Shown here: in pieces, positions 35,404-51,197 of the stretch
Position numbering within the stretch: position 1 is the stretch's first letter
How the letters are laid out: every line of letters starts with the position of its first letter
DNA from: Thermoplasmata archaeon
Lineage (GTDB): Archaea; Thermoplasmatota; SW-10-69-26; JACQPN01; JAJPHT01
NCBI GenBank assembly: GCA_034667685.1
Contig: JAXDQU010000025.1
Coordinates: 1-64,000 of the forward strand
DNA length: 64,000 nt
Reading direction: 5' to 3'
Program-made: the position numbers and the translations under genes
Notes under the pieces: model-generated
Database searches by the model: none
What the model saw: the letters and a program-made list of their open reading frames with translations, nothing else
What the model was told of the DNA's origin: nothing

Positions 35404-35476
35404 GGGCCGATCGTTCAGGGGTTAGGACGTCGCTCTTACAAGGCGAATGTCGCAGGTTCGAATCCTGCTCGGCCCA
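35404..35476 (+). tRNA. tRNA-Val(TAC), integration target
   Basis: GGGCCGA..TCGCT CT TAC AA GGCGA..GCAGGTTCGAATCCTGC TCGGCCC A. Confidence 0.95.
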
Positions 35477-35532
35477 CTTTCCGCGGCCACGAGGGATTTC
35501 GGCAATAGGCTTCTGTCCAAGCTTCCTTCGTG

Positions 35533-36471
35533 TCATTCTTCATCCTCTCCTTCGAGCGTGAACGGGTCCTTCCCCGGCCTCTTCTGCATGGCCTTGTCCA
35601 TGTCCTCGGGGTGGACCTCGGCGTAGATTTCGGTGCTCTTCACCGACGTGTGGCCCAGGTACGTGCGGACGTAGAGCAGGCTCCATCCCAGGCGGACCAG
35701 GTGGGTCGCGCGCGTGTGGCGCAGCACGTTGAAATTGACCTTGACGCCCACGGCCTCGCCGACGCGGTACAGGCAGACGCGCAGGTAGTCCGACGTCACC
35801 CGGCGGGCCGGCGCGGCGCCCGGCGCGTAGCCGCCGTTCCCGCTCTTGTGCGTCGTCGTCCAGAGAGCATCCGATTCCCCCTCGGGAACCGGCCGCACCT
35901 TGAGCCACGCCGCGAGCGGGCGCTTCGGGCTCCAGACCCACCGCTCCACCGGCAGCCAGCGCTTCAGGCCGCCCTTGGCCGGCTTCGCGATCCGGATACG
36001 CGACCGCTTCGGATCGAGGTCGCTCAAGGTCATGGCCGCGACCTCGCTGGCGCGCGCGCCCGTCACGTAGGCCACGAGCAAGAGAGCACGATGCATCTTC
36101 TCGGCCTCGGGGCTCGCGCACCTGTACCCGAAGAGCTTCCAGATCGCGTCCCGCGAAAGCGTTCGGAGCTGCGCGCGCGGCTCCTTGTGCGCCTTGAAGT
36201 GGACCTCCCGATGGAGCTTCCGCCACCGCAAGAGCGCGTTGAGCGCCTTCACGTCGTTGTTGTACGAGAACACCGTCGAGCGAGGCTCCACGCGACGCTT
36301 CGCCAAGTACGCCCGCCCCTCGCGCTCCGCGTCCGCCGCGCCCTTGACGAACACCGCGAGGTCAAGCCCGTGGACGCGGCGCGCCCGCTCCAGGCGCCGC
36401 AGCATGCGATCCACCGTGATGGGGCGCTTCCCCTCGTCCACGAGCAGGAACGTCCGGAACTCCTCGATCAC
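35533..36471 (-). CDS. tyrosine recombinase / integrase
   Basis: TGARASE, KPAKGG, NVLRHTRAT, LGH..STEIY; start could be further upstream (36564). Confidence 0.9.
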   Translation of the reverse strand: MIEEFRTFLLVDEGKRPITVDRMLRRLERARRVHGLDLAVFVKGAADAEREGRAYLAKRRVEPRSTVFSYNNDVKALNALLRWRKLHREVHFKAHKEPRAQLRTLSRDAIWKLFGYRCASPEAEKMHRALLLVAYVTGARASEVAAMTLSDLDPKRSRIRIAKPAKGGLKRWLPVERWVWSPKRPLAAWLKVRPVPEGESDALWTTTHKSGNGGYAPGAAPARRVTSDYLRVCLYRVGEAVGVKVNFNVLRHTRATHLVRLGWSLLYVRTYLGHTSVKSTEIYAEVHPEDMDKAMQKRPGKDPFTLEGEDEE

Positions 36472-36645
36472 ACGAGCCCGCGCGCCACCGAAGGCGCCCC
36501 GGACCCCTCCTACGCGACCTGCACACCCAAGATGCGCAGGCCGACATCGGCGCGCGCCATGCACAAGGCGTGCGCGCGCCCGCCGCTCCCGAACGCAGCC
36601 GTGTGCATCCGGACGCGGAGACCACAGAACACGCAGCCCAGGCGC

Positions 36646-37068
36646 CTACGCCTCCTGCGCCTTCGCGCCCGGCATCGGGATCAAGCCCGCGTCGAAGTAG
36701 CGGATGAACTGGTCCGCCCGCGGGCGCAGCAGCACCGGCACGTCGCCCAGGTTGTCCGCGCCGAACGCCTCGGCCATCGGACAGTTCGTCCACGAGTGGC
36801 ACTCCCACGTCTTGGGCGTCGCGATCTCCGCGACCGGCCGCCCGCCCGCACAGAGCAGCGCCGGCACGACCTCCCCGACGTACGCCTTCCACGTCTCGCC
36901 CGTCTCGATCACCGTCTCATCCGAGAGCTTCGCGCCGCGGAGGTTCGCGCCGTAGAGGTTCGCGCGGGCGCCTTCGGCGCCCCCGCTCTCGACCCACTTC
37001 TTGTGCGCGCTTAGAATGCTCTTCAGCTCGTCTGCCGTCGGGACCGTCACCAAATCTTTCCCCTCCAT
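36646..37068 (-). CDS. short pentapeptide-repeat protein
   Basis: ILSAHKKW..GARANLYGANLRGAKL, then CHSWTNCPMAEAF. Confidence 0.75.
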   Translation of the reverse strand: MEGKDLVTVPTADELKSILSAHKKWVESGGAEGARANLYGANLRGAKLSDETVIETGETWKAYVGEVVPALLCAGGRPVAEIATPKTWECHSWTNCPMAEAFGADNLGDVPVLLRPRADQFIRYFDAGLIPMPGAKAQEA

Positions 37069-37696
37069 GGGGAAGAGCCCCGCGCACCACCGAAGGCACG
37101 CGAGGCCCGACCATTCTCCACCCTTCTGGGATGCGTTCAAGCCCGCCCGAGGGGCACTACGATTGGAGGTTGGGATGCGTCTGGCTGCAACGCCCCCGGC
37201 CAGGCGGATGATAACTAACCGTAGGATGGGCCAAACGCGCGACGATCGCACGCCGCGCATTGCCCGCTCGTCGCCGAGATCGGCGCTTCGGCCCCACAGC
37301 CCGCGCACCGGGCCGGATCGTACCTCGACGCCGGCACGAACCCCACATGACGCCCCACCGCCGGCTGAGCACGCGCCTGCGAACGCACGCTCACGGCACG
37401 CCCTCCCCGAGCCCGCGCAACATCGCGCTCATGGCAGCCCCGAACTCCTCCCCCGCCCGCGTCAGCGCCTCGACCGCGCGCGCCCGCTCCTCATCGCCCC
37501 CGTCGCGCGTGCGGTACACGCGCACGGCCTCAATCCGCAGCATCGACTCGGCCACGTCCACGCGCTTCGCCTCCACCGAAGGCCCCCGCGGCTTCGGCCC
37601 CTCCAGCTCCGCGAACACCTCCGACGCCCGCGCCGCCGGCACCTACGCCACCTCCCGCTGCGCGGGTTCAAGCTCGGTGGGCACGTGCGGGCCAAC

Positions 37697-37957
37697 ATGG
37701 AGCCCTTGCGCGTTACCTTCGTCCTCCCGCCCGCCCTCGCCGCCGAGGTCCGCGCCTTCTGCTCCGACCAGCACGTCCCCGTGGAGGTTGCCGCGGCCTT
37801 CACGCTCGTCCTTCTCGCGCGCGGGCGCCTCGGGGAAGCGCCCGCCCACACGCTCCGGCTCGCGCTCGCCCAAGCCATGAGCGAAGGACGCAACATGGAC
37901 GACCTCCTCGCCAGCGTCCGCGACGGCGGCCCCAACGCCCTCGGCCTCTACCAGTGA
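37697..37957 (+). CDS. possible RHH-like protein
   Basis: MEPLRVTFVLPPALAAEVRAFC beta-alpha pattern; overlaps minus-strand ORFs. Confidence 0.4.
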   Translation: MEPLRVTFVLPPALAAEVRAFCSDQHVPVEVAAAFTLVLLARGRLGEAPAHTLRLALAQAMSEGRNMDDLLASVRDGGPNALGLYQ

Positions 37958-38043
37958 CCGGCGCCTCGGCGCGAGCGCGTTCACGATCTCCACCGCCTCC
38001 TCCAGCGTAAGCGCCTCCGGCGCACCGCACACCCCGCACACGC

Positions 38044-38211
38044 CTACGCAGCCCCCTTCTCGGTCTGCGCCTTCTGCGCGCGCCACGCCTGACAGAACGG
38101 GAAGAGCGCCGCCCGCAGGGCTTCCGCTCTGTCCTGGTAGCGGCCCTCCAGCACCATCGCGTCGATGTCAGAGAGGTGAGGGTCGGAGACACGCACGGGA
38201 ACCGATTTCAT
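38044..38211 (-). CDS. ribbon-helix-helix (CopG/Arc-like) regulator
   Basis: MKSVPVRVSDPHLSDIDAMVLEGRYQDRAEALRAAL. Confidence 0.8.
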   Translation of the reverse strand: MKSVPVRVSDPHLSDIDAMVLEGRYQDRAEALRAALFPFCQAWRAQKAQTEKGAA

Positions 38212-38236
38212 GGTCTGTTCCAGAATGGAACAGACC
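38212..38236. promoter_or_regulatory. operator palindrome between divergent RHH genes
   Basis: GGTCTGTTCCA-GAA-TGGAACAGACC, perfect 11-bp arms; AT-rich TTAATTGTA next to it. Confidence 0.75.
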
Positions 38237-38300
38237 GTTTCAGCCTTAATTGTATCGCATTGGATCAAACCGGAACGCAACCTACCGACATCGCTAACCC

Positions 38301-38645
38301 ATGCAACGGATTGCAGCGCGCGTGCGCTCTGAGAAGGATGAGGGCTCCGAGACTGGCGCCAGCACCCCGATCCGCATCGACAACTATCAGATTGAGTGGA
38401 TGGACGACTTCGCCCGCCGCTTCAAGCTCTGGGGCGGACGCCGGGAGATCGTCCGTGCAGCCGTCCGTGAGTTTGCGATGCGCCACGACCCCAAGCTCGG
38501 GGCGCCGGAAGGCGAGACCCCGGCCTTGCCCTCGCCCAGTCCGATGGACGAGGCGGAGATGCGCTCGCGTGGTCTGCGTCAGAGCGTTGAGAAGAGGATC
38601 GAGGAGGACCGCCAAGCGGCGGCCGAGGCCGAGAAGAAGCGCTGA
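38301..38645 (+). CDS. RHH regulator with C-terminal extension (repressor candidate)
   Basis: STPIRIDNYQIEWMDDFA...RREIVRAAVREF. Confidence 0.7.
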   Translation: MQRIAARVRSEKDEGSETGASTPIRIDNYQIEWMDDFARRFKLWGGRREIVRAAVREFAMRHDPKLGAPEGETPALPSPSPMDEAEMRSRGLRQSVEKRIEEDRQAAAEAEKKR

Positions 38646-38647
38646 CC

Positions 38648-38905
38648 TCAGCAGATGTCGTACTCGATGCCCGGCGGAATCGTATTCGGGTCGATGCCGA
38701 CGCAGAGCGGGACCCAGACGCCAGCCTTCGCGTCGAACCACATGCAGAACGGGACCGTGACGGAGCCCGGCGCCATCGGCCCGCCCGAGGGCCCGATTCC
38801 GGGCGCACATGGCGGCAAGGGCGTGTCGCCTGACGGCAACGCGCGCACGGGAGCCACGGCGAACGCGAGGAACAGGGCGACGAGCACGAGGGGGAGAGCG
38901 CGCAT
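38648..38905 (-). CDS. small secreted Pro/Cys-rich protein
   Basis: signal peptide; 4 Cys. Confidence 0.6.
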   Translation of the reverse strand: MRALPLVLVALFLAFAVAPVRALPSGDTPLPPCAPGIGPSGGPMAPGSVTVPFCMWFDAKAGVWVPLCVGIDPNTIPPGIEYDIC

Positions 38906-39004
38906 CTGACCGAAGGACGACGCGGCGCAGCATCAACCCTCCTCGAACCTTTCACAATCCACCTCGACTCAGCTTGAAGCGGCGGCCACCCCTTCGCGCG
39001 CGCA

Positions 39005-40156
39005 ATGGGTTGGCGCTTGGTGGCTCTACTGGTCGCAGCGCTCCTGCTGCCCAGCGCGAGCGCCGCCCCAATCGCCACCGCCGCGCTGACCCTGCCCGCC
39101 GCAAGCACGGTCACGGGGTCGCCCCTCGCCATCTGGGCCAACAACACCAACGCCCCCAGCACATTCGAGCTTCACGTGCCTCTGCTGCACGTCCACGCCG
39201 TCCAGCGCGACTACACGCGCGCCAGCACGATCCGCGTCTACGGCCACGAGACGTTCCCCACCTTCGACCTCCACAACGCCACCGTCACGCTCGACGCCGC
39301 GCCCCCTGGAGACAGCGCCTGGATCGGCATCTACCCAGACGCCCGCGCCCACCTCGCCTTCACCCTCACCGACGCCAGCACCGTCACGGCCGCGGGCCCT
39401 GAGCGCATCGGCCGAGGCGGCACCGTCACGCCCGACGCCGACCCCTACTACCAGCGCGACCTCGACGGCCCGCACCTTGACGCGACCGGCCCCGGCGCCC
39501 TCGCCTACGCCGGCCCGGCCGTCGTCAAAATCACAGGCGGAATCGTCCGCATCCACGCCAACGAGAACGACACCACCTGGCAAACGCAACCCTACGACCA
39601 AGACCCCGCCCTCACCCACCAGGGCACCGAAGCTCACCTCGTGCTCACGTTCGACACTGGCAGCTTCACGCTCGCCACGAGCGCCCCCCTCGTCGTCGCC
39701 CTCGCAAGCGCCCACGCCACATGGACCGGCACCGCCTACGCCGGCCCCATCCCCCTCGACGCATCCGGCGCGACCCTCACCTCTGCCCTCATCGCCGGCT
39801 CGCCCGCCGCCTACCTCATTCCCGACACGCCCGGGGCCGCCACGCTCACCCAGATCGCGACCGGCGCGCCCGCCCTTGCACCCTGGGCCATCACAGGCGC
39901 CCTCGCCCTCCTCCTGGCTCTCACGCTCGGCGCCCTCGCCCGCGCACGCCGAGACCGCCTCCGCGACTCCTGGATCGTCGCCCAGGCCGCCTACGCCGCG
40001 CGCGATGACGCCCTCGCCCGCCGCGCGCTCGTGCGAGCCCTCCAGAAGGACCCTCGACTCGCGCTCGACGTCGAGGGCACCTTCCCCAGCCTCTCCACCG
40101 ACCCGCGCATCCAACGCGCCTTGGAACGCGCCTACCAACGAGATGGACGCCTATGA
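39005..40156 (+). CDS. membrane-anchored surface protein with helical cytoplasmic tail
   Basis: signal peptide, Thr/Ala-rich beta ectodomain, TM, helical tail. Confidence 0.7.
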   Translation: MGWRLVALLVAALLLPSASAAPIATAALTLPAASTVTGSPLAIWANNTNAPSTFELHVPLLHVHAVQRDYTRASTIRVYGHETFPTFDLHNATVTLDAAPPGDSAWIGIYPDARAHLAFTLTDASTVTAAGPERIGRGGTVTPDADPYYQRDLDGPHLDATGPGALAYAGPAVVKITGGIVRIHANENDTTWQTQPYDQDPALTHQGTEAHLVLTFDTGSFTLATSAPLVVALASAHATWTGTAYAGPIPLDASGATLTSALIAGSPAAYLIPDTPGAATLTQIATGAPALAPWAITGALALLLALTLGALARARRDRLRDSWIVAQAAYAARDDALARRALVRALQKDPRLALDVEGTFPSLSTDPRIQRALERAYQRDGRL

Positions 40157-40542
40157 TCGCCCGCCCCCTCCTATTCGCCGGCACACTGCTCCTCGCGCTC
40201 ATCCTCCCCTTCCCCTCGCACAACCCCCCGTCGCAGGACCCGGCTCCCGCCGCGCCTCCGTCCCCCGATGTACGCGCCGGTCGCGTGGACGCGAACTGCA
40301 ACCTCGTCTCCGGCTTCGGTTTCACCGTGTCCGCGCTCGGCCCCGGCGACTGCCTCGTGATCTGGACGCCCGCGCTCCACGCCGCGAACTACACCGTCGT
40401 CGGATACACCGAGCGCGGGCTCAACACGTTCGCCGCCGAGAGCTACACGACCAACAGCACCGAGATGGAAGCCTTCAATAGCGGTTGCGGCCACGGCTGC
40501 CCGGCTCCCTTCGCCTTCGTCATGGTCGCCCCGCCCTCCTGA
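40153..40542 (+). CDS. secreted or membrane-anchored hypothetical protein
   Basis: N-terminal hydrophobic segment; 4 Cys; start overlaps upstream stop. Confidence 0.6.
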   Translation: MIARPLLFAGTLLLALILPFPSHNPPSQDPAPAAPPSPDVRAGRVDANCNLVSGFGFTVSALGPGDCLVIWTPALHAANYTVVGYTERGLNTFAAESYTTNSTEMEAFNSGCGHGCPAPFAFVMVAPPS

Positions 40543-40545
40543 TCC

Positions 40546-41049
40546 CTACGTGGGCAGGAGGCTGCTCGGGTTGACGACGTTCACGGTGAAGTTGCTGAAC
40601 TGGCCGAGGTTGTCGCCATTGTCCTGGTCGATGTAGACCTTCCAACGACCCGAGATGCTGTTCACGCCCGTGATCGGGACGAGCACGGCGAGCAAGCCCG
40701 ACGAGCCCCCCAAGCCCGCGATCGTCGGATGCTGCGCGCCGCCCACGCCGAAGCTCGCGATGTCCGTCTTCGTCCCCGTCACGACGTCCTGGAATCCCAA
40801 GTAGAGGTGGTACGCGACGCCGCCGCCGTTGTTGCCGGCCGTCCAGTCGATCAGCATCTGCAACGTCACGATGCCTTGGAACAACGCGGAGAGCTCGCCG
40901 CTCGTGTACATGTTGGTCCGCACGCCGCCGTTCGTCACCGTCTGAATCGGCCCCGCGACCGTCAAAGCGTTGTACGTCGAGAGCCCCGTGAGCTGGTTCC
41001 CCTTCGTCGGCTTCTGCCCAAGGCTCGCGTACGTGCCGCCCTCAGCCAT
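40546..41049 (-). CDS. beta-rich putative virion (spike/vertex) protein
   Basis: last gene of the tightly coupled minus-strand operon; Gly/Thr/Asn-rich. Confidence 0.55.
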   Translation of the reverse strand: MAEGGTYASLGQKPTKGNQLTGLSTYNALTVAGPIQTVTNGGVRTNMYTSGELSALFQGIVTLQMLIDWTAGNNGGGVAYHLYLGFQDVVTGTKTDIASFGVGGAQHPTIAGLGGSSGLLAVLVPITGVNSISGRWKVYIDQDNGDNLGQFSNFTVNVVNPSSLLPT

Positions 41050-41257
41050 CCTTCCCCCCCGGCATCTGGAGGTTCAAGCAATGCGCCTGACGCACGAGCC
41101 CGTAGCCCGCCGCGATCGCCCCCGCCGCGAGCAACAAGACCGCGCCGGGCGCCACGGGCGGCAAGTGCCCATAGATCGCCTGGATGATCACGGCGACGCC
41201 CGCGCTCACCAAGGCCATCGCGCTCCAGCAAAGCGCGCTCTGCACCGTCACCATCAC
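41042..41257 (-). CDS. small two-TM protein
   Basis: two hydrophobic helices; coupled overlaps. Confidence 0.6.
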   Translation of the reverse strand: MMVTVQSALCWSAMALVSAGVAVIIQAIYGHLPPVAPGAVLLLAAGAIAAGYGLVRQAHCLNLQMPGGKDG

Positions 41258-41820
41258 GCCACCGCCGCAACGGCATGCTCAGGATGTTTGAACGCGAACA
41301 CGAGGACGGCAAGGATCACCACAACGACAAGAACCCCGACCCCCACGCCCGCGAACTTCAAGCCCGAGCCCAAGCTGTCGAGACCCGACCCGGCGCCGCC
41401 CGCGAGATTCCCAACCCCACGCCCAGCATCGGCGATGGCCTGGCCCGTCGGCTGCGTCACGTCGCGGATGATGACCGGCACCTGATGCGCCACGTCCGGA
41501 ATCACCTGGACCGTGTTCACGCCCGCCTGCCCGAGCCGATTCCCGAGGTTGCCCAACCCCGCGTACGCGCCCTTGACGCCCCCCGAGAAGTCTTTGTAGG
41601 CTTGCCCCGCGCCTCCGATCACGTCGCCCGGCACGCTCGCGACCGCCACGGCGCTCCTGTTCGCCGCCGCACCAATCGCGCCCAGGCCACTCTTGTCGTA
41701 AGCCGCCGCGAACCCGTTCCCGACCGAGCCGGCCGTGTCGTGGACCGCCTTGCCCGCGCCGCCGATGGCCGCACCGACCTTGCTCTTCGTCTCGTCCGCC
41801 AAGTCGTTCAACCAAGACAC
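41254..41820 (-). CDS. Gly/Ala-rich amphipathic protein with C-terminal TM (virion membrane/pilot-like)
   Basis: GGAGKA/GGVKGA/GRGVGN helical repeats, then a TM. Confidence 0.6.
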   Translation of the reverse strand: MSWLNDLADETKSKVGAAIGGAGKAVHDTAGSVGNGFAAAYDKSGLGAIGAAANRSAVAVASVPGDVIGGAGQAYKDFSGGVKGAYAGLGNLGNRLGQAGVNTVQVIPDVAHQVPVIIRDVTQPTGQAIADAGRGVGNLAGGAGSGLDSLGSGLKFAGVGVGVLVVVVILAVLVFAFKHPEHAVAAVA

Positions 41821-41826
41821 CCCATC

Positions 41827-42438
41827 TCACCTCCCCACAAGCCTGATTCCCTTCGGCGTCTGGCGCGGCGCGACCACGGCTCCCGCGGCGTGTGCGCTCG
41901 CAGGCGCAGCCATCGTCGCCGGAGCATGCACCGGCGCCACCGGACCAACGAACGCCCCCTCGTTCTGCTGCGCGACGTGCGCCGCCGCGACGCTCGGCGC
42001 CGGCACGAAGAACAGACCCGACGCGAGGGGCTGTGCCTTCGCAGCCGGAGCCGGCGGACCCACCGGACCGTTCAGCGGGCTGTTGGGAGGCACGTACAAC
42101 GCGCTCGGCGGGCCCGTGTAGATGCTACTCCCATTCGCCAGGTTCAGGAAACCGCTCCCGGGAGGCCCAGCCGGCGTCTGGCTCACGATGGGAGACGCCA
42201 GGTCGGCCGGCGCGAGCTGCCACGTCTGGCCCGCGTCGTACCTCACCGGCGCACCCGGCGCGGAGCTCGACTGGGCCGGCCCCGGGTCCGTCGGGTCCAT
42301 CGTCCCCGCCGCGCTCAGATCGCCACTCGCGAAGCCCGCGCTCGCCCCGCCCTGACCCCGCGAGCCGAAGATCAACCACACCACGAGCGCCACCACGCCG
42401 ATCCCCAGCAACGCCACCATCGTCGATTCACGCATCAT
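41827..42438 (-). CDS. N-terminal TM, Pro/Ala-rich protein
   Basis: VALLGIGVVALVVWLIF followed by low-complexity sequence. Confidence 0.6.
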   Translation of the reverse strand: MMRESTMVALLGIGVVALVVWLIFGSRGQGGASAGFASGDLSAAGTMDPTDPGPAQSSSAPGAPVRYDAGQTWQLAPADLASPIVSQTPAGPPGSGFLNLANGSSIYTGPPSALYVPPNSPLNGPVGPPAPAAKAQPLASGLFFVPAPSVAAAHVAQQNEGAFVGPVAPVHAPATMAAPASAHAAGAVVAPRQTPKGIRLVGR

Positions 42439-42441
42439 CCA

Positions 42442-42810
42442 TCACCCGAACGTCCACTCGTGCCAAGCACCCAGCACCAGGCCCACGGTGCCCGAGACCT
42501 CGTAGTACGCGCCCGGCGGGACGAGGAAGCTCACGCGCTCCGCGAGCACCGCCGCAATCGCGCCGAAGTTGGTCTGCAAGTCGGTGTCCACGATCGTCGC
42601 GGGCGCCGGGTTCGCATCGCAGAAGGCCGTCGTCTGCGTAGAAGCAGCCGCCCCCGTGTTCTTGCTCGTCCGCACCATAACCAGGAGCGTCCGCCCCGAG
42701 AGGTTCTGGTACACCGTCGTGAGCGCGCGCGTCCCCGCGCCGCCCGCGCTGAGGTCCCCACTGTCCGTCGGCTTGTACAAGAGCCGGCCATCCGGCATGT
42801 CTTCCGTCAT
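42442..42810 (-). CDS. beta-rich putative virion protein
   Basis: TVYQNLSGRTLLVMV...SFLVPPGAYYEV; ATGA-coupled start. Confidence 0.6.
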   Translation of the reverse strand: MTEDMPDGRLLYKPTDSGDLSAGGAGTRALTTVYQNLSGRTLLVMVRTSKNTGAAASTQTTAFCDANPAPATIVDTDLQTNFGAIAAVLAERVSFLVPPGAYYEVSGTVGLVLGAWHEWTFG

Positions 42811-43352
42811 GAGTACCTCAACTCCAGGTTGCTGATCCACGAGACGGCGCCCCCGGCGTAGGCGCCATCCGTCGTCGCGCGGATCGAAATCGTGTCGCCC
42901 GGCGCGAACGCCACGCCCGCGCCCGTCGAGTCATGCCACGTCGCCGTGTCGTCGTTGAACGCGAACACCACGAAGAGGCCCGTCGGGGCGCCGTTCTTCC
43001 AGACCGTGAGAGTCAGGTTTCCAGCCGTCGCGCCGTTCGTGTAGCGCAAGACGCTGAAGCCATTGATTGTGCCCGCGCGCCGCATCTTGGGCGCGACGAT
43101 CGTGTTGTTCGTCGAATTCGAACCCGTCGCCGGATTGTAGCTCCGCGCGTCGTTCGCGACGAACGTCTGGGTCGACACCTGACCGATGATCTGGTCGCCC
43201 GGCTGCGAGCCGATCACCGCCATCGTGCCCCGCCGCTCCGGCGGAGTCGGCGGCGCAGGCCGCAGCGTCCCCCGCTCCCAAGCGTCGAACATCGCGCCCA
43301 GCATCTCACGCTGCTCGTCCGTCACGACGAGGACATGCTCACGCGGAGGCAC
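42807..43352 (-). CDS. beta-rich putative virion protein
   Basis: GAGGAGGG SD before GTG; LTLTVWKNG...VAFAPGDTISIR. Confidence 0.6.
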   Translation of the reverse strand: MPPREHVLVVTDEQREMLGAMFDAWERGTLRPAPPTPPERRGTMAVIGSQPGDQIIGQVSTQTFVANDARSYNPATGSNSTNNTIVAPKMRRAGTINGFSVLRYTNGATAGNLTLTVWKNGAPTGLFVVFAFNDDTATWHDSTGAGVAFAPGDTISIRATTDGAYAGGAVSWISNLELRYS

Positions 43353-43740
43353 TGAGCCCACCCTCCTCGACGATCTCGACCTGCCCCGCCACCAGCGCCA
43401 CACCCGAAGGCGTCACCGTGTAGTAGCGCACCAGGCCCACGCCCGACTGCGCGTTGAACGTGACCGAATCGTTCGGCCCCACCGTGCGCGGCGTGTCCCC
43501 ATTGAACACGAACGCGAGCGTCGACCCGCTACGGTTGAAGACCCTGATCTGCGTGCGGTACGGGAACCGCACGAAGGGAAACGCCTGCGCGAAGACGCGC
43601 GCGGCCGCCGTGCCGATCGCGAGGCCCCCCGCGCCGGGGTCCCAGCGCGACTCGGGCATCTGCACTTCCGGCGGAGCGGGCGCGACCGCGCCGCGCTGCC
43701 AAGACGCGAAGGGCTGGGGGTAGGGAGAACGGACGGACAT
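43339..43740 (-). CDS. beta-rich putative capsid-associated protein (133 aa)
   Basis: QIRVFNRSGSTLAFVFNG...VGPNDSVTF alternating strands. Confidence 0.55.
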   Translation of the reverse strand: MSVRSPYPQPFASWQRGAVAPAPPEVQMPESRWDPGAGGLAIGTAAARVFAQAFPFVRFPYRTQIRVFNRSGSTLAFVFNGDTPRTVGPNDSVTFNAQSGVGLVRYYTVTPSGVALVAGQVEIVEEGGLSASA

Positions 43741-43799: not shown

Positions 43800-44333
43800 C
43801 TACGTGGACGAGCTGACGAAGCGCTGGTAGCCACGCGGGCTGTAGTTGTGTCCCACGGGCGGGATCACGCGCAGCACCGGCGCGGGCACGTTCGCGACCG
43901 TCGCCGGGTTGTCGTCCAGACCCAGCGGGTTCGTCTGCGTGCCGTTCACCGTCTTCGTGACGCGATCCGCCAGCGAGATCAGCTTGTCGAGCACGCGGAC
44001 GCGGCCCGTGTAGTCGCGGAAGCAGTCCGCGACGTTGAGCTGCACCGTGAAGTTGGCCGTGACCCACGTCGCGTGCGCGGCCGAGTCCAGGTACTCCAGG
44101 TCCAGCCACTCCAGCGCGTTGCCGTGCGCCACCAGGTTGCTGGGCGTCCGCACGATGCGGTCATTCAGCGTACCCTCCGGGTTGCCCTCCACGGCATCCT
44201 GGAGCACCGCGCGCGGCGACGTCGTCGCGTCGAGGATGTTGTACGGAATGTACTCGGTCGTGGCGATGTAGTTGCCCATCGAGTCCTTCACCGCGAAACG
44301 GTACATGCCCGCCGCGATCTCCGTCTGCACCAT
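43800..44333 (-). CDS. candidate major capsid protein (177 aa)
   Basis: near the head of the structural operon; SD-like GGGTGGTGGG; soluble and beta-rich; fold not verified. Confidence 0.45.
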   Translation of the reverse strand: MVQTEIAAGMYRFAVKDSMGNYIATTEYIPYNILDATTSPRAVLQDAVEGNPEGTLNDRIVRTPSNLVAHGNALEWLDLEYLDSAAHATWVTANFTVQLNVADCFRDYTGRVRVLDKLISLADRVTKTVNGTQTNPLGLDDNPATVANVPAPVLRVIPPVGHNYSPRGYQRFVSSST

Positions 44334-44348: not shown

Positions 44349-44570
44349 TCAGATGCCCTGGAACGCCGCGGGAGTCGAACCCAGGCCGCCGGAACCGCCG
44401 GCGCCGGTGACACGAGCCACGCCCGGCACCTTGGCCTGGAGCCAAGGCACGATGAAGCGGGAGGCCACGAGGTAGAGCAGGACGAGCATGACGATGCCCG
44501 CGAGAGCCAGACCCACCGACTTCGGCGAGAGCAGGTTCACGTGGGTCACGTCCACATTGGCAGAGGCCAT
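44349..44570 (-). CDS. small single-TM protein, first gene of the structural operon
   Basis: GLALAGIVMLVLLYLVA; SD GGTGAGG. Confidence 0.65.
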   Translation of the reverse strand: MASANVDVTHVNLLSPKSVGLALAGIVMLVLLYLVASRFIVPWLQAKVPGVARVTGAGGSGGLGSTPAAFQGI

Positions 44571-44681
44571 GTTGAGGAAACCTCACCCGCCCACGGCCCC
44601 GGAGCGACGATGAGGAAGCGTTGCAAGTAGAACAGGAATCCATATCGCCGCTCCGCACGTCGCGCACGACGGGAACGCACC

Positions 44682-44930
44682 TTGGCAACCACCACCCCGA
44701 GCGAAACGGAACAGCTCGACAAGAAGACCGAATGGATCCTCGGCAAGGTCCCCATGCTCCTCAAGGCGCTCGGAATCGGCCAAGCCGAACGCAAGGTGCT
44801 CGTGGACGGCATCCTCTGGGCCGTCAGCAAGGTCGGCGAGATCGACCAACGCGCCACCCGCACCGAACGCCTCCTCCTTCTCCTCGCGCAGAAGAACGGC
44901 ATCAACGCCGAGGAGGTGAACACCCAATGA
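44682..44930 (+). CDS. small helical protein
   Basis: coupled to the next ORF via GGAGGTGA; TTG start uncertain. Confidence 0.55.
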   Translation: MATTTPSETEQLDKKTEWILGKVPMLLKALGIGQAERKVLVDGILWAVSKVGEIDQRATRTERLLLLLAQKNGINAEEVNTQ

Positions 44931-45076
44931 GCGCCCCCGCGACCCCCATCTACACCTGCCCGGGATGCTACATCACCACGACGGAACCCGTTCCCCTCCC
45001 CGGCGACAAGCTCGGATGCCCCAACTGCATCGACACCTTCGCCACCAAGAACAACGCCATCCTCCAGGAGGCGTGA
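44927..45076 (+). CDS. small zinc-ribbon protein
   Basis: CPGC...CPNC. Confidence 0.65.
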   Translation: MSAPATPIYTCPGCYITTTEPVPLPGDKLGCPNCIDTFATKNNAILQEA

Positions 45077-45078
45077 AC

Positions 45079-45471
45079 ATGCCCAAGAAGAACACCGACG
45101 CCGAAGACGCGCGCCGCATCAAGGAACTCGCCGCCGCCGGCAAGTCCCAGCGCCAGATCATGCGCGAGACGCGCCGCAGCCTCGGCTTCGTGAACAGCGT
45201 CTGCACGGGCAAGAAGGACGACCTCCTCAGCGCCCCGAAGACCACGCCCGCCCCCAAGGGCGCGCCCAAGCCCCCGCGTGAGGAGGAAAACGAACGCGCG
45301 GGCGACGAGGAGGGCGAGGCGTTCACGCTCAACGAACCGGAACCCCCTACGGGGGTTCCGAAGCCCAAGAAGAACGCGCCCAAGGAACGCGAAGAAGAAC
45401 ACGACGAACAGCCCGACCAGGAGCCTCGCAAGCGCGAGTACCGGCTCCACCTCTGGGGGCCCGACGCATGA
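45079..45471 (+). CDS. HTH protein with charged tail
   Basis: RRIKELAAAGKSQRQIMRETRRSLGFV. Confidence 0.65.
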   Translation: MPKKNTDAEDARRIKELAAAGKSQRQIMRETRRSLGFVNSVCTGKKDDLLSAPKTTPAPKGAPKPPREEENERAGDEEGEAFTLNEPEPPTGVPKPKKNAPKEREEEHDEQPDQEPRKREYRLHLWGPDA

Positions 45472-45956
45472 ACGAATCCGCCCCCGAGCAGGTCGAGTAC
45501 GCCGACGACTTCGCACGCGCGGCCGCCGAAGCCGGCGACGCGCCCACGCCCGCGCAGCCAGCTCACACGATGCCGGGCCCCGCCCCTCCGGCCGAGCCCC
45601 CCGTCCAATACCCGCCCTTCCACCCCGACGACTGGCGCGACAACGCGATCGCGATGGGCATCAACGGCCTGGCCGACGGCCTCGCCGGCATGCCCGAGGA
45701 CACCGCCACCAAGGACAACCTGGGCGAGTCGATCGCCTTCGCCCTCGACTACTACACCGGCGGCAAGCTCCAGAACCTACCTCCCTACGCCCACGTCGTC
45801 ATCAGCGGCGGCAAGTACACCTTCCACGTCGTCATGCACAAGAAGAACAGCACCAAGGACGACGAGAACGACGACGCGGCCGCCGCCGAACTCGCCAAGC
45901 GCATGGAGGCCGCGCGCAAGGGCGGCGCCAACACCCAGGCGGTGAACAGCCCGTGA
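45468..45956 (+). CDS. hypothetical viral protein
   Basis: 162-aa coupled ORF. Confidence 0.6.
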   Translation: MNESAPEQVEYADDFARAAAEAGDAPTPAQPAHTMPGPAPPAEPPVQYPPFHPDDWRDNAIAMGINGLADGLAGMPEDTATKDNLGESIAFALDYYTGGKLQNLPPYAHVVISGGKYTFHVVMHKKNSTKDDENDDAAAAELAKRMEAARKGGANTQAVNSP

Positions 45957-46326
45957 TGGCCTTCCCGCTCCTGGAAGACCGCGCCTGGTGCGAACACCCC
46001 TGGGAACACCGCAACGCCGTCGTCCTCAACGGCGCCCCCTTCGTCGTCTGCACGATCTGCGGGGCCATCGAGGTGGCCCGATGAGCCCGCCCCACCACGC
46101 GCCGCGACGCGCCGGCCTGCGCGAGAAACGCGAGACCCTACGCGACCAAGCACCCCAAGGCGCATGCAAGGCCTGCTTCGCCTCTTGGCAGTACCCCGCC
46201 TCGATGCACGTCTACCGCTGGAAGGGCGCCCTCATCAGCATCGCCGCATGCGACGCCCACCGCGCCGAGGTCTTCGCAGCCCTCGACGCCGCCCAAGGCT
46301 GCCCGGGGGACCCGCGTGCCCGTTGA
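45956..46326 (+). other. two tiny Cys/His-rich ORFs (45956-46084 and 46081-46326)
   Basis: CEH..CTICG and CKAC..CDAH; overlapping stop/start codons. Confidence 0.5.
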
Positions 46327-46993
46327 GGCAGACCTGGAGAGCCACACGAGCATCTTCGGTCGCACGAGCAGCGGGAAGACGTACCTCTTCCGCGAAGCCA
46401 TCTGGAAGAAGACCAAGAAGCGCATCGTCTTCGTCAACACCCAACGCGAGCTGGGCTTCGGCCCCGAGATCAGCGCCCACAACTGGCACATCTCCCTGCT
46501 CACCAAGCCCGCCGCCCGCGTCAACCTCGTCCCGCCCCTCCTGAGCGCGCGCGCCAACGGCCAAGCTGCGACGCTCGATCTCTGCGCGCGCATCGTCGAT
46601 GACTGCATCGCGGTCGGCAACAAGGTCGCTCGCGACCGGCGCGGGCTCGTAGTCCTCGCCTTCGACGAGGCCCACCTCCTCAGCCCCAAAGGCAGCCCCG
46701 ACGACCCACTCCAGCGCGTCGCCACCAACGGCAACCGCTTCGGCATCAAGGGCGCCTTCATCACGCAACGCCCCGCCAAGCTCAGCCACACCGTCATCTC
46801 GCAGAGCATGACCAAGGTGCTCTTCGACCTCGACGACTACGAGCAGCCCTACCTTGACCACTACGCCGTCCCACAGGGCGTGCAAGAGTGGATCAAGGCG
46901 CCCGTGCCCAACGCGCCACCCGGCACGCCCAACCGACGCTTCGCCGTCCAGCAAGGAAAAGTCTGGACGCGCTGCCGCCCCTACTTAACGTGA
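46316..46993 (+). CDS. FtsK/HerA-superfamily ATPase (A32-like genome packaging candidate)
   Basis: Walker A GRTSSGKT, Walker B LAFDEAH, GNRFG, ITQRP; only 225 aa with no accessory domains. Confidence 0.8.
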   Translation: MPVEADLESHTSIFGRTSSGKTYLFREAIWKKTKKRIVFVNTQRELGFGPEISAHNWHISLLTKPAARVNLVPPLLSARANGQAATLDLCARIVDDCIAVGNKVARDRRGLVVLAFDEAHLLSPKGSPDDPLQRVATNGNRFGIKGAFITQRPAKLSHTVISQSMTKVLFDLDDYEQPYLDHYAVPQGVQEWIKAPVPNAPPGTPNRRFAVQQGKVWTRCRPYLT

Positions 46994-47201: not shown

Positions 47202-47420
47202 TCAAGCTGCGCGCGGAGCTTCCATATGGGTTTCCACGAGCACCCACACCGCGTCCGCCCCATGCTTCCCTGTCACGACCGCGCGCCCCGACTTCTTCAA
47301 CGTCTCCGCGCACTCCCGCGGCGACCACCGACGCACCCGCACCGACACCTCCCCCGCCGTCGCCGCCCCGCCCAACTCCCGCAACGCGCCCACGATCGCG
47401 CTCCGCTTGCTGTACGTCAC
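47202..47420 (-). CDS. small wHTH-like protein
   Basis: AIVGALRELGGAATAGEVS...VW. Confidence 0.5.
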   Translation of the reverse strand: MTYSKRSAIVGALRELGGAATAGEVSVRVRRWSPRECAETLKKSGRAVVTGKHGADAVWVLVETHMEAPRAA

Positions 47421-48334
47421 GCGCCCACCGCCCGAATGACCCAGACCACGCCCAACACGAACGCGCCGAGGACCGCGAAGACGATGATGTGCCGCACGAT
47501 CTCGCGCGCCGAGAACGACGCCTCACCCGGATGGGCGTCGGGTCTCCGCTCGGCCTCGACGGGGCGCCTCGCTACCACAGCGCGGCCTCCATCGCCCTCG
47601 CCTCCGCCGTCTCCTCGTACTCAATGCGATCCGCGAACACCCGCGCCCTCGCACACCACGACGGCAGGACGAAGCACACGACCGGCGGCCACTCGCCGGA
47701 ATGACTTCTTGGCGTTTGGTCAGGCAAGGCCGGTCCCTCCACAGCGCGGGCAGCGCTTACCGTCGCGGACGTTGAGGGGGCCGAGGCTCCCTGGGGGGTA
47801 TTTGCGGTGCGGCCCCTTGTGGCCCTTCGGCATCGTGCAGAACGCGGTCCCGATGCCGTTGGCCCCCGTCCGCATCTCGCGCCCGCATTCCTCGACGCCG
47901 GCACTTCGATCCGTCACACGACCACCTCGGTGTCGCAGAGGGAGCAGCGCAGGACGAGCCGCCCGTTGGCCGCGACATAGAATGCTGCCGGCGGGCCGTG
48001 CGGGCGAGGACACGCCGGAAGGGGCATCCGCTGCCACGGCCAGCGCCATCGGCTCCTTTGCTTCGACGGTTCGCTCATGCGACCACGCTCCTGCATTTCC
48101 AACCGACTTCGACAACGCCTCGCAGCCACCCGAGCCTGAACATGCGCCAGCCCGGCGTCGTCGCTGCGAGCGTTCCGACCTTAGGCAGCCACCACGTCGG
48201 CGGCCCGTGCCGCACGCGGACGCTGAAGCCCTCCAATCGCTCGCTGCGCGGCGTCGCCCAGACGAGCCCCGCGCCGTCGTCCTCCGCGTACTTTCCGCCG
48301 AAGACGAGCGGCGGAACGCGGTCACTTCCTCCCG

Positions 48335-48991
48335 TCAGGAGACCACGCCCCCGAGGGTCCGCTGGGCCTTGGCGTCGTCGATGAGGCCATAGCTGTCGTT
48401 CTGCGCCCAGCTCGACGAGTCGGCCGAGTCCGCGCCGATCCGCTCCGCGAGCTTCAGCATCTCGACCGTGCCAGCGCGGGCGAGGTGAACCTTCAGGCCG
48501 AGCTCGCGCCCGGCCCGGGCGAACCGCTCCGCGTTCTTGACCTTCCAAGCCGGCGATCCACCGATGAAGACGCCCGCCACGAGGCTGGCGACCTCGGCGA
48601 GGTGCGCCTCGGTCATGTCGTCCTGCACGGCGAAGTACCACGGCCACCCGCCCGGGAGCGTGGGGCGCCCGAAGCCACGCAGCCAGTAGAAGCTCTCCCG
48701 GAAGCTCCGCTCGCCCTGGGCCGGGATATCCGGGACGACCCCGAAGTCCGGCCGATGCGTCACGGGGACCTTCTTGAGCGCCTTGGCGAACGCGCCCGCG
48801 TCGAAGTCCCAGACCCCCCGCCCCTCGCGCAGCGCGGCTTGCCACGTCGAGAACGCGCCGTTGTCCAGCGCCCACGGGATGCCCGGCTTCGGCGTCCTCC
48901 AGTCCGCGGCCGTGATGAGCACACCCATCCCCCGAGCTCGGACCTCCGCGAGCCCCGCCGGGTCGCCCTCGCTGCCAGAGTAGAGCCTCAA
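48335..48991 (-). CDS. TGT/DpdA-like TIM-barrel protein
   Basis: WALDNGAFS, VVPD, VFIGGS..WK, VHLARA, ADSADSS. Confidence 0.6.
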   Translation of the reverse strand: MRLYSGSEGDPAGLAEVRARGMGVLITAADWRTPKPGIPWALDNGAFSTWQAALREGRGVWDFDAGAFAKALKKVPVTHRPDFGVVPDIPAQGERSFRESFYWLRGFGRPTLPGGWPWYFAVQDDMTEAHLAEVASLVAGVFIGGSPAWKVKNAERFARAGRELGLKVHLARAGTVEMLKLAERIGADSADSSSWAQNDSYGLIDDAKAQRTLGGVVS

Positions 48992-49791
48992 GGGCCCACC
49001 TCCGAGCGCGACGGAAGGACCCCGACAAGGCGGGGCTTCTCGCCGCGAGCGTCAACGGTCATTTCGTCGGGCATGTCCCCAGCGTCGGGATTCGTCGCGC
49101 TGGGTGTGGGGAATCCGACCGGAATCCCCACACCCCCGTTTTCTGGTCTTGCGCCCTCGGCATTTTCGACCCCCGGTTTCCCCACACCCTTGCAGACCGG
49201 GCAGCGATCCTTGACGTGCTCGCGCGACCCGTCCGGGCGCGTCCTGAACTTGTGCTCCGCCCCGTACTCGACCGGCCGGCCCGCGGGGACCTCGGAGCGC
49301 GGGCCGTAGGTCCGCCCGTCCTCCCCGACCGTCATCACGTCGGCGGTGCGCTCCCGGATGAGATCCAACTCGAACTCCGCGAAGACGGCGCCCACGCCAC
49401 GGACCATCTTCGAGAAGGCGTCCTCGCGGATCACATTGGCCTGCGCCTGATCGATGAAGACCAACTCGGCGCCCCTGTTCACGAACACGTCGGCCACATC
49501 GAGATAGTGCTTCGCGCTCCTCATCGGCCGGTCCATCTTCGTGCAGTACACCCGGCGGATTTTCCCAGCCTTCACCGCGTTGAGCACGCGCTCCCACTCG
49601 GGACGGTTCGGGTCGCCGCCCTTCCCTATGTCGTGCGCCTCCAGCACCACGGCGTCTCCGGCCTGCTCAGCCACGGCGCGCGTGCGCTCGATCTGGACAC
49701 GCCACGAGCTTGGCGGCTCGTCGCCCTCGAACCTCGGCTTCCAGCCCTTCGGCGGCTTCGAGTTTCGCCCGTAGACTGCGACACCCGCCAC
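48988..49791 (-). CDS. serine recombinase (resolvase family)
   Basis: YGRNS, RPEW, KMDRPMRS, FAEFELDLIRER; C-terminal CPVC. Confidence 0.85.
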   Translation of the reverse strand: MAGVAVYGRNSKPPKGWKPRFEGDEPPSSWRVQIERTRAVAEQAGDAVVLEAHDIGKGGDPNRPEWERVLNAVKAGKIRRVYCTKMDRPMRSAKHYLDVADVFVNRGAELVFIDQAQANVIREDAFSKMVRGVGAVFAEFELDLIRERTADVMTVGEDGRTYGPRSEVPAGRPVEYGAEHKFRTRPDGSREHVKDRCPVCKGVGKPGVENAEGARPENGGVGIPVGFPTPSATNPDAGDMPDEMTVDARGEKPRLVGVLPSRSEVGP

Positions 49792-50583
49792 CTACGCCAC
49801 CTCCGGCGCGTTGGGGTCCATCGCGGGCGGCGTCCACACCTGGCGCGGCCCGGTCAGGCCCTTCACGATCTCGACGGCCTCGGCCAACGACAGGCTGGTG
49901 GGCACCACCTGCAGCTCGATCCGCATGAGGTCCGCGTGCTTCTGATAGAGGTGCGCCCAGGCGTTCTGGAACGCCTTCAGGCTCACGTCGGTGAGCCCGC
50001 TCACCTCGAACTGCTTGTAGTCCGCGTTCAACTCGACGCGCGCCACGCGCGTGTTGGGCGAGTCGAGCTCCACGCCGATCGCCGAGCAGTAGCCCGACAG
50101 CTTCGCGAAGAACGCATCCAAGTCCGTCGTGCGCAAGGGCGCGCTCGACGCGCTCACGCTGATGACCACCGTCGCCGTGGCCGGGTGGATATCGAAGTGG
50201 ACCTTGCGGTCGTGGATGAACTCCCGCTTCAGCAACGACTTCGCCCCCTCCGTCCGCTCGTACCCCATCGCCCCGAACGTCGTCTGGATCGCACCCGGGA
50301 GGGCTCTCCCCCCATTGGGAGGCAGTTTCGCGACGATCTGGAGCCCGTGCATCATCATCTCGGGCGCCTCGACCTTCGGCAACAGGTCCACGCTCGTCCA
50401 CGCGCGGTACAGGCCATGCGTGCCCGTCTCGACCTGCTGGCGCGCGCGCATCCGGTGCAGCTCCTTGCGCACGCCACCCCACGAGAGGCCCGTCGCCTTC
50501 GCGATGGCCTTCGGCGTGTCCGTCCTGGGGTAGATGCCGCGCAGGAAGAGCGCGATCTTCCGGGCCGCGCCCTTCTCTGGCAC
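49792..50583 (-). CDS. wHTH-fused putative rolling-circle replication initiator (Rep_trans-like)
   Basis: N-terminal wHTH (TPKAIAKATG..VRKELHRM..GLY); RVELNAD...LYQK...RIE; start uncertain. Confidence 0.55.
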   Translation of the reverse strand: MPEKGAARKIALFLRGIYPRTDTPKAIAKATGLSWGGVRKELHRMRARQQVETGTHGLYRAWTSVDLLPKVEAPEMMMHGLQIVAKLPPNGGRALPGAIQTTFGAMGYERTEGAKSLLKREFIHDRKVHFDIHPATATVVISVSASSAPLRTTDLDAFFAKLSGYCSAIGVELDSPNTRVARVELNADYKQFEVSGLTDVSLKAFQNAWAHLYQKHADLMRIELQVVPTSLSLAEAVEIVKGLTGPRQVWTPPAMDPNAPEVA

Positions 50584-51197
50584 GATGGGGTAGCGCCGGT
50601 CGTCGTAAGCTTCGAGCCTGCGCGACCTCCCACCCGGCAAACGCGGCGACTTTCCCGCCTCTTTGCGCGGCAGTCTACCCGAAAAAAATGGACGGGTCAA
50701 GGCAGCACGCCCCCCGCCTTCGGATCGGAAATCCGACACGCCGCCGCTTCGCTCGACGCCGCGCGCCGGGACCGCGACGCATCGCCCCTTCCATCGTGCC
50801 GGGCGTGGCACGTCGATCCATCCTCATGGACCGCGAGGTCGCACACGAGCGACCTGAGACGCTTCCCGTGGCGAGCGCATGTCACGCGCGCGCCCAACGC
50901 CAGATGCAGCGTCACGGCCGGACCCCCCACTGAGCCCGACGCGCTGCCCGCGCCTCGAAGAGCGCGCGCCTGCGCACCGCGTAGGCCCCCGGCGGGTGCC
51001 GCTGGCCCGTCGTCATCTCGCGCAGCCGCTCCACGTCGCCGGCGCTCACGTGCGCGCCCCCTCAACGAGCACGATGTCCCAGCGCGCGGGAGCGCGCACG
51101 ACCAGCGCGCCTTCGGTGGTCACGACGACGGCCGGCTGCTTACCGGGATTCTCTCGTGGCGTCGTTTCGCGGCCCTGCTCGGCCCATCGTCTCGGAA

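Follow-up and report, generated by a model that had tools for sequence, protein, structure and literature searches.

Borders and extent of the element

The stretch of DNA analyzed here, hereafter the window, comprises positions 1 to 64,000 of the forward strand of contig JAXDQU010000025.1 from a Thermoplasmata archaeon (assembly GCA_034667685.1). It contains a 15.7-kb element integrated in a tRNA-Val(TAC) gene, which we judge to be probably a quiescent temperate virus without a tail that carries a packaging motor of the type found in Helvetiavirae. The window corresponds to contig C25 of the host genome (G000; 3.48 Mb in 124 contigs, 99% complete) and has a G+C content of about 70%; the element spans positions 35477 to 51186 (15,710 bp) and is delimited by the following features:

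35404..35477 (+), tRNA-Val(TAC), the integration target, its 3′ end rebuilt by the left border of the element (ARAGORN)
35464..35476 (+), attL core, 13 bp (exact repeat)
51174..51186 (+), attR core, 13 bp (exact repeat)
35533..36564 (-), intact tyrosine integrase (PF00589, E = 8e-21); the true start may lie downstream of 36564

The tRNA-Val gene neighbours a tRNA-Gln gene at 34742-34814 (ARAGORN). Its last 13 bases before the final C, CCTGCTCGGCCCA, matched exactly two places in the 64-kb window, 35464-35476 and 51174-51186 on the same strand, and none of 100 dinucleotide-preserving shuffles contained any match to this repeat. The repeat is not longer than 13 bp, as the 21-nt tRNA end, searched with up to 3 mismatches, matched itself alone. 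These results agree with an earlier reading made without database searches (the sequence-only reading), which had proposed a duplication of the tRNA 3′ end at both borders and an integrase at attL; 56 bp separate the attL core from the integrase gene, whose product also gave XerA/XerC-like NCBIfam matches below the cut-offs. An alternative, larger element reaching to about 55,300 was considered and rejected: the right border was kept at 51186 because a host family with many copies accounts for the genes at 51297-55281 and no further copy of the att core exists.

Because the raw list of open reading frames (ORFs) is mostly noise at this GC content (149 ORFs of at least 50 amino acids (aa) in 20 kb), genes were picked by third-position GC (GC3) and frame plot. 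About 30 ORFs with coding-type GC3, the number previously proposed, occupy the element interval, chiefly on the minus strand, and the GC skew, steadily negative from 36 to 51 kb, fits a genome with mostly minus-strand genes. As the sequence-only reading had also noted, families of terminase, portal, HK97 or tail proteins were not matched in scans with Pfam (30 ORFs) and PHROGs (20 of those 30), with two exceptions: the PHROG matched by the ATPase described below is labelled 'terminase large subunit', which is also the RefSeq label of the SH1-type ATPase, and one ORF had a weak tail-fibre match (E = 0.003).

A small ATPase related to viral packaging ATPases

46316..46993 (+), 225-aa stand-alone FtsK/HerA-type ATPase (phrog_2666, E = 2e-15)

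The stand-alone FtsK/HerA ATPase recognized in the sequence-only reading is confirmed; it carries a Walker A motif (GRTSSGKT), a Walker B motif (DEAH) and the motif TQRPA. Searched against 50,697 phage records, it gave eight matches, all eight of them to the packaging ATPases of SH1, PH1, HHIV-2 and HCIV-1. We built one profile from the ATPase and its five relatives (A1) and another from the four viral ATPases (A8), and hhalign aligned the two over 153 columns (27% identity) with a probability of 98.3% (E = 1.1e-14). In size, too, the proteins are nearly equal, with 225 aa here and 240 aa in the alphasphaerolipoviruses. From these alignments we regard the ATPase of the element as a true homologue of the alphasphaerolipovirus packaging ATPases; the match of A1 to the ATPase of SNJ1 was weaker (hhalign probability 64%, E = 6e-5, 54 columns).

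Close relatives are very few: a search of 5.8 billion clustered proteins yielded five, each of them from a Logan assembly, with 54-68% identity and lengths of 220-226 aa, and neither the ATPase alone nor A1 found a relative in IMG/VR, the JGI metagenomes or the GTDB species genomes. The sequence-only reading had called the virus probably unclassified; our searches support this and show the element to be very rare. Across a sample of 401 genomes of the phylum, A1 matched 213, nearly all through partial matches to cellular HerA frames of 450-850 aa; near-full-length matches in small frames occurred in five genomes (G190, G012, G003, G045 and G384). A plasmid collection yielded 11 records encoding HerA-like proteins (E = 6e-4 to 8e-4, 39-51% coverage). 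A HerA-type defence island was rejected as an explanation, given the 225-aa length, the lack of extra HerA domains and the partial nature of the PADLOC matches.

The divergent operon and the 177-aa protein family

On the minus strand, divergent from the ATPase operon, lies a nine-ORF operon (40546-44570), in which five ORFs encode soluble proteins and four encode proteins with one or two predicted transmembrane (TM) helices:

44349..44570 (-), 73-aa basic single-TM protein, first gene of the operon (hydropathy, translation)
43800..44333 (-), 177-aa soluble protein, GC3 0.95, founding member of the family aligned in A3; candidate major capsid protein
43339-43740 (-), soluble protein of about 133 aa (frame plot, translation)
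42807-43223/43403 (-), soluble protein of 138-198 aa (frame plot, translation)
42442-42840 (-), 132-aa soluble protein (frame plot, translation)
41042..42438 (-), three membrane proteins: 203 aa, Pro/Ala-rich with an N-terminal TM helix; 188 aa, Gly/Ala-rich with a C-terminal TM helix; 71 aa with 2 TM helices
40546..41049 (-), 167-aa soluble protein, last gene of the operon, GC3 0.94

The sequence-only reading had described this as a nine-gene operon of small beta-rich and TM proteins. The nine genes and their division into soluble and membrane proteins stand; the beta-rich label was given no weight, as the crude Chou-Fasman method that leaned toward beta for the soluble proteins mis-called VP7, a known beta protein, as half helical. 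No Pfam or PHROG family was found for the operon proteins besides the tail-fibre match (E = 0.003), the sole PHROG match among the three soluble proteins of 42442..43740, and there was no match to PDB sequences or to a sphaerolipovirus capsid protein. The 167-aa protein matched itself alone among 5.8 billion proteins.

The 177-aa protein has two close relatives, and a HMMER scan of 1.84 billion representative sequences with its family returned 27 hits at E <= 1e-3, of which 20, including the protein itself, are short single-domain proteins. We rejected the other seven, long multi-repeat proteins (SprB, Big_9 and similar repeats) in which only a short hairpin-like motif was matched. Alignment A3 excludes these seven and two truncated hits (126 and 111 aa), includes the two close relatives, and comprises 20 sequences of 163-186 aa with 23-69% identity. 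None of the ten A3 members that we looked up has a name, and their origins are Logan, ENA or NCBI. By these searches the family appears to be rare and unannotated, with about 20 full-length members; it occurs in two of the 401 genomes of the phylum sample (G000 and G008), and the 177-aa protein had no match in the phage collection at E <= 1. A 60%-identical homologue of the ATPase and a 60%-identical homologue of the 177-aa protein were both reported with a longest contig of 10,147 bp, a shared value which suggests that the two lie on one contig.

We consider the 177-aa protein a candidate capsid protein, chiefly because the gene order of sphaerolipoviruses is echoed here: a small ATPase is linked to a small TM protein and to a soluble protein about 175 aa long.

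Related loci in other genomes

A second instance of the core layout was found in G008, a genome from another genus of the host's family, on a 5.7-kb contig (G008:C417, locus L020, 1-5711). One strand carries a gene of the 177-aa family, cut by the contig end, and a small TM protein; the opposite strand carries a helix-turn-helix (HTH)/zinc-ribbon gene, another gene and a 250-aa P-loop FtsK/HerA-like ATPase, which aligned to A1 over 176 columns (E = 1e-3, probability 22%). Three other proteins of the operon had no match in G008.

In G012, from the same genus as the host, a 10.6-kb contig (G012:C71, locus L040, 1-10643; chief regions 3069-3935 on the minus and 6443-7620 on the plus strand) encodes a small ATPase with 26% identity to that of the element over 168 aa (E = 1e-6) and a match to the PH1 ATPase at E = 1e-10. 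Divergent from it are genes for proteins of 164 and 221 aa, and the 221-aa protein resembles PH1 VP4 (31% identity over 117 aa, BLASTP E = 1.4e-9, hhalign probability 86.8%) and SNJ1 PB2 (E = 4e-5). The contig carries no tRNA, and profile A3 matched none of the G012 proteins. Judging from these similarities, G012:C71 has the appearance of a virus or provirus of the Helvetiavirae type with a non-halophilic archaeal host, and its VP4-like protein therefore indicates that bona fide Helvetiavirae-like viruses infect this non-halophilic lineage. The element in the window has their motor in common with them, but not the capsid proteins by which they are recognizable.

Two further loci of the phylum sample carry small ATPases (228-250 aa) with nearly full-length A1 matches, and they may be more elements of this kind. 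In L041 (G190:C38) the ATPase gene lies at 9298-10047 of the locus on the minus strand, and ORFs of 168, 129 and 129 aa come after it on that strand; in L042 (G003:C5) it lies at 9553-10236, also on the minus strand.

Host, absence from relatives and state of the element

The host is archaeal, its small subunit rRNA matching the archaeal model with 1498 bits over the whole model, and with 70% GC it is the high-GC archaeon that the sequence-only reading had supposed. Its proteins show no acid shift (pI 7.0 for the flanking RNase HI), and with such a neutral proteome the host is therefore not a haloarchaeon; sequencing runs with this sequence are labelled soil metagenome. We searched a 19.9-kb query across the element in nine genomes of the host's family (eight besides the host). 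Among the matches listed, only the flanks were found (the tRNAs, RNase HI and multi-copy genes to the right), with no DNA match longer than about 65 nt inside the element in any of the eight other genomes.

The check for an empty site suggested in the sequence-only reading succeeded in two genomes of the same genus. In G009 (contig C36) the tRNA-Gln and tRNA-Val genes, 86-89% identical, are followed by one unrelated gene of about 600 bp, and synteny returns at about 55,320 of the window and runs to 59,681; in G011 (contig C211) the same tRNA pair is followed by a peptidase S51 gene, without an integrase. The element is absent from both same-genus genomes with a readable site. Together with the adjacent integrase and the border repeat, this gives it every feature of a tRNA-integrating tyrosine-recombinase element. 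In pNOB8-type elements an intact integrase adjoins attL and the repeat is the tRNA 3′ end. An intact integrase beside the tRNA gene is what we take to be pNOB8-type integration, a likeness in integration mode only, silent on the cargo.

The element is single-copy in G000 and was present unchanged in two soil metagenome runs from two studies, X1, which may be the source sample, and X2, which has 97% of the sampled words. When contigs of both runs were compared with window positions 34500-52500, those of X1 and X2 bridged attL with zero differences, and one X1 contig bridged attR by 41 letters. Contig depth in X1 was about 8.4-9.1 inside the element and 9.5-9.7 outside; in X2 it was 6.0-7.4 inside and 7.4 outside. 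The element is stably integrated and single-copy in both runs. Listed joints with sides of 20-27 letters were rejected as attP or attB, since they resemble noise contributed by other organisms or repeats. The listed sequencing runs carrying the sequence included no RNA run.

Recombination genes and candidate DNA-modification and replication genes

Three adjacent genes lie near the right border:

48335..48991 (-), 218-aa DpdA-like DNA/tRNA-guanine transglycosylase homologue (phrog_15826, E = 5e-22)
48988..49791 (-), 267-aa serine recombinase of the resolvase/invertase type (PF00239, E = 2e-19)
49792..50811 (-), 339-aa protein without a known family; only its position and size make it a candidate replication initiator

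The resolvase named in the sequence-only reading is supported by Pfam, and the N-terminus of the protein (...VYGRNS...) looks like a catalytic-serine motif. The possible DNA-modification gene likewise stands, as a statement of homology. Besides its match to phrog_15826, the 218-aa protein has a weak match to queuine tRNA-ribosyltransferase, and tblastn matched it to eight phage records with 29-35% identity, the best being two Erythrobacter phage records (34-35% identity over 89% of the query); five of six mycobacteriophage records name the matched gene a DpdA-like tRNA-guanine transglycosylase. No PDB or NCBIfam match was found. The host has two QueC genes above the Pfam cut-off, and a 7-deazaguanine precursor is therefore plausibly available. 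A second DpdA-like gene lies elsewhere in the host genome (G000:C51:16955-17557), 33% identical to that of the element over 212 aa, and may belong to another mobile element.

The proposed rolling-circle replication (RCR)-type Rep was not borne out: comparison of the 339-aa protein with PHROGs, NCBIfam, PADLOC, PDB sequences and the phage collection gave no match, nor did Pfam with the threshold relaxed to E <= 10. In an ESM feature search its top matches were DUF7845 clusters, a lead only, with a score of 0.77. DUF7845 is described in PMC13107129 as the Rep-Arvir rolling-circle endonuclease family, the Rep of pleolipoviruses, and its Pfam model, PF25227, had no match anywhere in the host genome at E <= 10.

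Comparison with known viruses

Members of Helvetiavirae/Halopanivirales (Sphaerolipoviridae, Simuloviridae and Matsushitaviridae) have two adjacent single-jelly-roll (SJR) capsid proteins, a small one of about 160-185 aa and a large one of about 220-290 aa, and an internal lipid membrane with small virion membrane proteins. A further feature of theirs, a homologous FtsK/HerA packaging ATPase, is present in the element by profile comparison, and in the alphasphaerolipoviruses SH1, PH1, HHIV-2 and HCIV-1 (Sphaerolipoviridae, Helvetiavirae) this ATPase is of the same size. The likeness to PH1 extends to gene arrangement: its ATPase operon is divergent from an operon that opens with VP12, a small basic membrane protein, and then VP7, a protein of about 180 aa, and here the corresponding genes encode the 73-aa TM protein and then the 177-aa protein (the PH1 order is VP12, VP7, VP4, facing the ATPase operon; that of SNJ1, AY048850, is ATPase, VP6, PB7, PB2). 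Alphasphaerolipoviruses differ, however, in having linear genomes of 28-31 kb, a lytic cycle and halophilic hosts, whereas the host of the element is not a halophile; their VP7 and VP4 are without a detectable counterpart in the element; and they are without integrase, resolvase and DpdA, all three of which are represented in it.

The Simuloviridae are temperate, with circular genomes of 16-19 kb and about 30 ORFs (PMC12642351), which supports the comparison drawn in the sequence-only reading with the genome size of temperate SJR haloarchaeal viruses. In size, ORF count and temperate character the element matches this family, and it resembles SNJ1 further in its small packaging ATPase and its small structural and membrane proteins. 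By contrast, SNJ1 is an episome and the element is integrated in tRNA-Val. SNJ1 also has a HUH RepA, a MazE-type switch and a host in Halobacteria, whereas no HUH or MazE family was matched among the ORFs of the element (Pfam, PHROGs, NCBIfam) and the host proteins are not acidic. The similarity between the ATPases is the weaker one given above, and no similarity to PB7 or PB2 was found in the element. On present evidence the element appears to work like members of Simuloviridae or Sphaerolipoviridae; it should not be filed in either family, since it has no episome, HUH Rep, halophilic host or recognizable VP4 or VP7. By Pfam and PHROGs it also has none of the HK97 capsid, portal, terminase and tail genes of Caudoviricetes.

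Tailless-virus modules in non-halophilic archaea that can be compared with the element are those of G012:C71, which differs in having a recognizable VP4-like capsid protein, and of the 'Huracanviridae' of ANME-1 archaea, whose SJR capsid proteins are reported to be related to those of Helvetiavirae (preprint 10.1101/2022.07.04.498658). Searches of the literature on Helvetiavirae, sphaerolipoviruses and SJR proviruses in archaea returned no account of the group to which the element may belong, the supplementary tables of PMC13107129 and of the ANME-1 preprint being outside the scope of this survey.

Interpretation and alternative explanations

The element is probably the quiescent and apparently complete genome of a temperate tailless virus. 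This virus would belong to a rare, as yet unclassified group and would combine a Helvetiavirae-type motor with capsid proteins that either have diverged extremely or belong to a new family; we hold this reading with moderate confidence. Viruses of this group probably contain a membrane. In such a virus, the integrase would recombine the tRNA end with an attP core of 13 bp, and a 15.7-kb circle would result from excision, on which the 339-aa orphan protein may start replication and the serine recombinase may resolve multimers. The DpdA-like enzyme could insert a host-made 7-deazaguanine base in the viral DNA, blunting restriction. An icosahedral shell would be built by the 177-aa protein, either by itself or together with a small protein encoded next to it, over a membrane in which the small TM proteins would sit. 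The ATPase would act as in PRD1 and sphaerolipoviruses, pumping DNA at one vertex into a particle that has already formed.

Several results weigh against this reading. The ATPase also gives weaker partial matches to cellular and defence HerA proteins, far below the cut-offs. The A3 profile matched none of the PDB sequences at E <= 10, A3 members gave PHROG matches no better than E = 0.05-0.1, and the ESM Atlas model of the 177-aa protein was unusable (pLDDT 0.35), with feature matches of at most 0.83 and structure matches with TM-scores of at most 0.42. Five queries (the ATPase, A1, A2, A6 and A7) found no relative in IMG/VR, and searches with A7 in metagenomes and with P0037 in genomes returned no related locus. 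We compared 12 proteins of the element and A3 with VP7/PB7 and VP4/PB2 capsid profiles, widened to include the four alphasphaerolipoviruses, SNJ1 and the G012 proteins, and the best result was 6.8% over 14 columns; this is a weak test, since the controls also scored low (SNJ1 PB7 against VP7, 32%; SNJ1 PB2 against VP4, 0.9%) and the comparison is therefore insensitive. The gene after that for the 177-aa protein has room for about 150 aa at most, so that this position does not hold a VP4-like large capsid protein (221-239 aa, or 220-290 aa at the widest), and no replication protein family was recognized in the element. Finally, the contigs of the two runs showed the integrated form alone at flank-level depth, with neither an empty site nor the 51186|35477 junction that the sequence-only reading had proposed as a check for attP; contigs drop rare forms, and this result is silent on rare excision.

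The strongest competitor is an integrative plasmid or other non-viral element whose ATPase and membrane or secreted proteins serve DNA transfer, partition or a surface function without a virion. Consistent with it, no capsid, portal or other virion hallmark was found by Pfam, PHROGs, PDB sequences or profile comparison; the tyrosine integrase, serine resolvase and orphan replication-like protein are typical plasmid equipment; IMG/VR held no relative; and both runs showed one copy per genome. We nevertheless think a plasmid unlikely. The specific relatives of the ATPase are virus packaging ATPases of the same small size, whereas known conjugative FtsK/VirB4-type ATPases are much larger than its 225 aa, and its matches in the plasmid collection are weak and partial. 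Moreover, a conserved small soluble protein and a TM protein accompany the ATPase in two divergent elements, as in the sphaerolipovirus morphogenesis module.

A defective provirus remnant that no longer forms particles or excises appears improbable. The contigs contained no excision product and had the depth of the flanks, the repeat is just 13 bp, and several ORFs at 47,400-48,130 and 50,700-51,100 have poor coding signal. Against this, the main genes are open and of full length (225 aa for the ATPase against 220-226 aa in five relatives, and 177 aa against 163-186 aa in its family), the att cores at the two ends do not differ, the same sequence recurs in runs of two studies, and contigs are unable to show rare excised forms. 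The description 'apparently intact' in the sequence-only reading has support from open reading frames only, and no excised circle was seen in the contigs of the two runs.

A pleomorphic, pleolipovirus-like vesicle provirus without an icosahedral capsid, with the 383-aa protein listed below as spike and the small TM proteins as membrane proteins, would be in keeping with the many small membrane proteins, the signal-plus-anchor protein, the DUF7845 lead for the 339-aa protein (just 0.77) and the resemblance of a tRNA-integrated element of about 16 kb to the SNJ2-type betapleolipoviruses (PMC13107129), but is improbable given that neither PF25227 in the genome nor any Pfam family for the 339-aa protein was found at E <= 10, that no PHROG match to pleolipovirus proteins was found among the scanned ORFs, that the ATPase is specifically akin to packaging ATPases of icosahedral viruses, and that five small soluble operon proteins would be unexpected in a vesicle-type virion.

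Returning to the reading of the element as a tailless virus, a broader proposal is possible and distinctly more tentative: that the element, G008:C417 and about 20 metagenomic 177-aa proteins represent a new archaeal virus group at the family level or higher, combining a Helvetiavirae-type ATPase and membrane-protein layout with an undescribed capsid family, tRNA integration in non-halophilic soil archaea and 7-deazaguanine DNA. Known SJR membrane-containing tailless viruses infect halophilic archaea and Thermus. The element and the VP4-bearing element of G012 would place this packaging motor in a poorly sampled lineage of high-GC soil archaea, a novelty in host range tempered by the 'Huracanviridae' of ANME-1, a candidate family reported earlier. 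If the 177-aa family is a capsid protein, it would represent a new structural solution on an ancient motor, with a bearing on the evolution of the Varidnaviria morphogenesis module, and the element would be an integrated member, with a DpdA-like gene besides, of a group in which the known temperate representatives are episomes. If its fold is not capsid-like, the element would be an unusual integrative plasmid with a borrowed viral ATPase, of narrower interest.

Remaining genes and flanking sequence

The other genes of the element are the following:

36646..37308 (-), 220-aa protein with a pentapeptide-repeat-like stretch (phrog_7713, E = 4e-8; PF00805, E = 0.003, below cut-off)
38648..38905 (-), 85-aa Cys-rich protein with an N-terminal hydrophobic segment (hydropathy, translation)
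39005..40156 (+), 383-aa protein, signal-like at its N-terminus and anchored by a TM segment at its C-terminus (hydropathy); candidate surface or spike protein
40153..40542 (+), 129-aa secreted-type protein with an N-terminal hydrophobic segment (hydropathy, translation)
44682..46326 (+), four small genes that precede the ATPase gene: 82, 168 (weak HTH match), 162 and 112 aa
47202..48129 (-), about four small ORFs: 72, 53 (TM helix), 110 and 71 aa, the last two of uncertain coding status

The genes for the 383-aa and 129-aa proteins are convergent with the nine-gene operon, and the 129-aa protein matched no Pfam or PHROG family. The 383-aa protein has weak paralogues on contigs C50 and C96 of the host genome, and no family match in Pfam, PHROGs or NCBIfam.

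Directly to the right of attR lies an 87-bp palindromic repeat (window 51195-51281) with 41-nt arms that are 93% complementary. Dozens of copies occur on many contigs of G000, on both strands, giving it a REP/MITE-like look, and it breaks the Logan assemblies at this point. It is followed by two tandem paralogues on the minus strand (51297-53246 and 53287-55281), which encode acidic proteins (about 650 aa, pI 4.2-4.3) that begin with signal-like segments and match no family. The family is multi-copy in G000 (contigs C117, C6 and C33) and in G009, and it is absent at this site in G009, where the unrelated gene of about 600 bp is found instead. A small ORF conserved with G009 (55321-55548) marks the resumption of synteny, and its start seems partly duplicated, with similar stretches gagaagatccgcttcga and gaaaagatccggctgga about 60 bp apart. 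Toward the end of the window (60001-64000), G+C content rises to 0.78-0.82, compared with 0.70 in the remainder.

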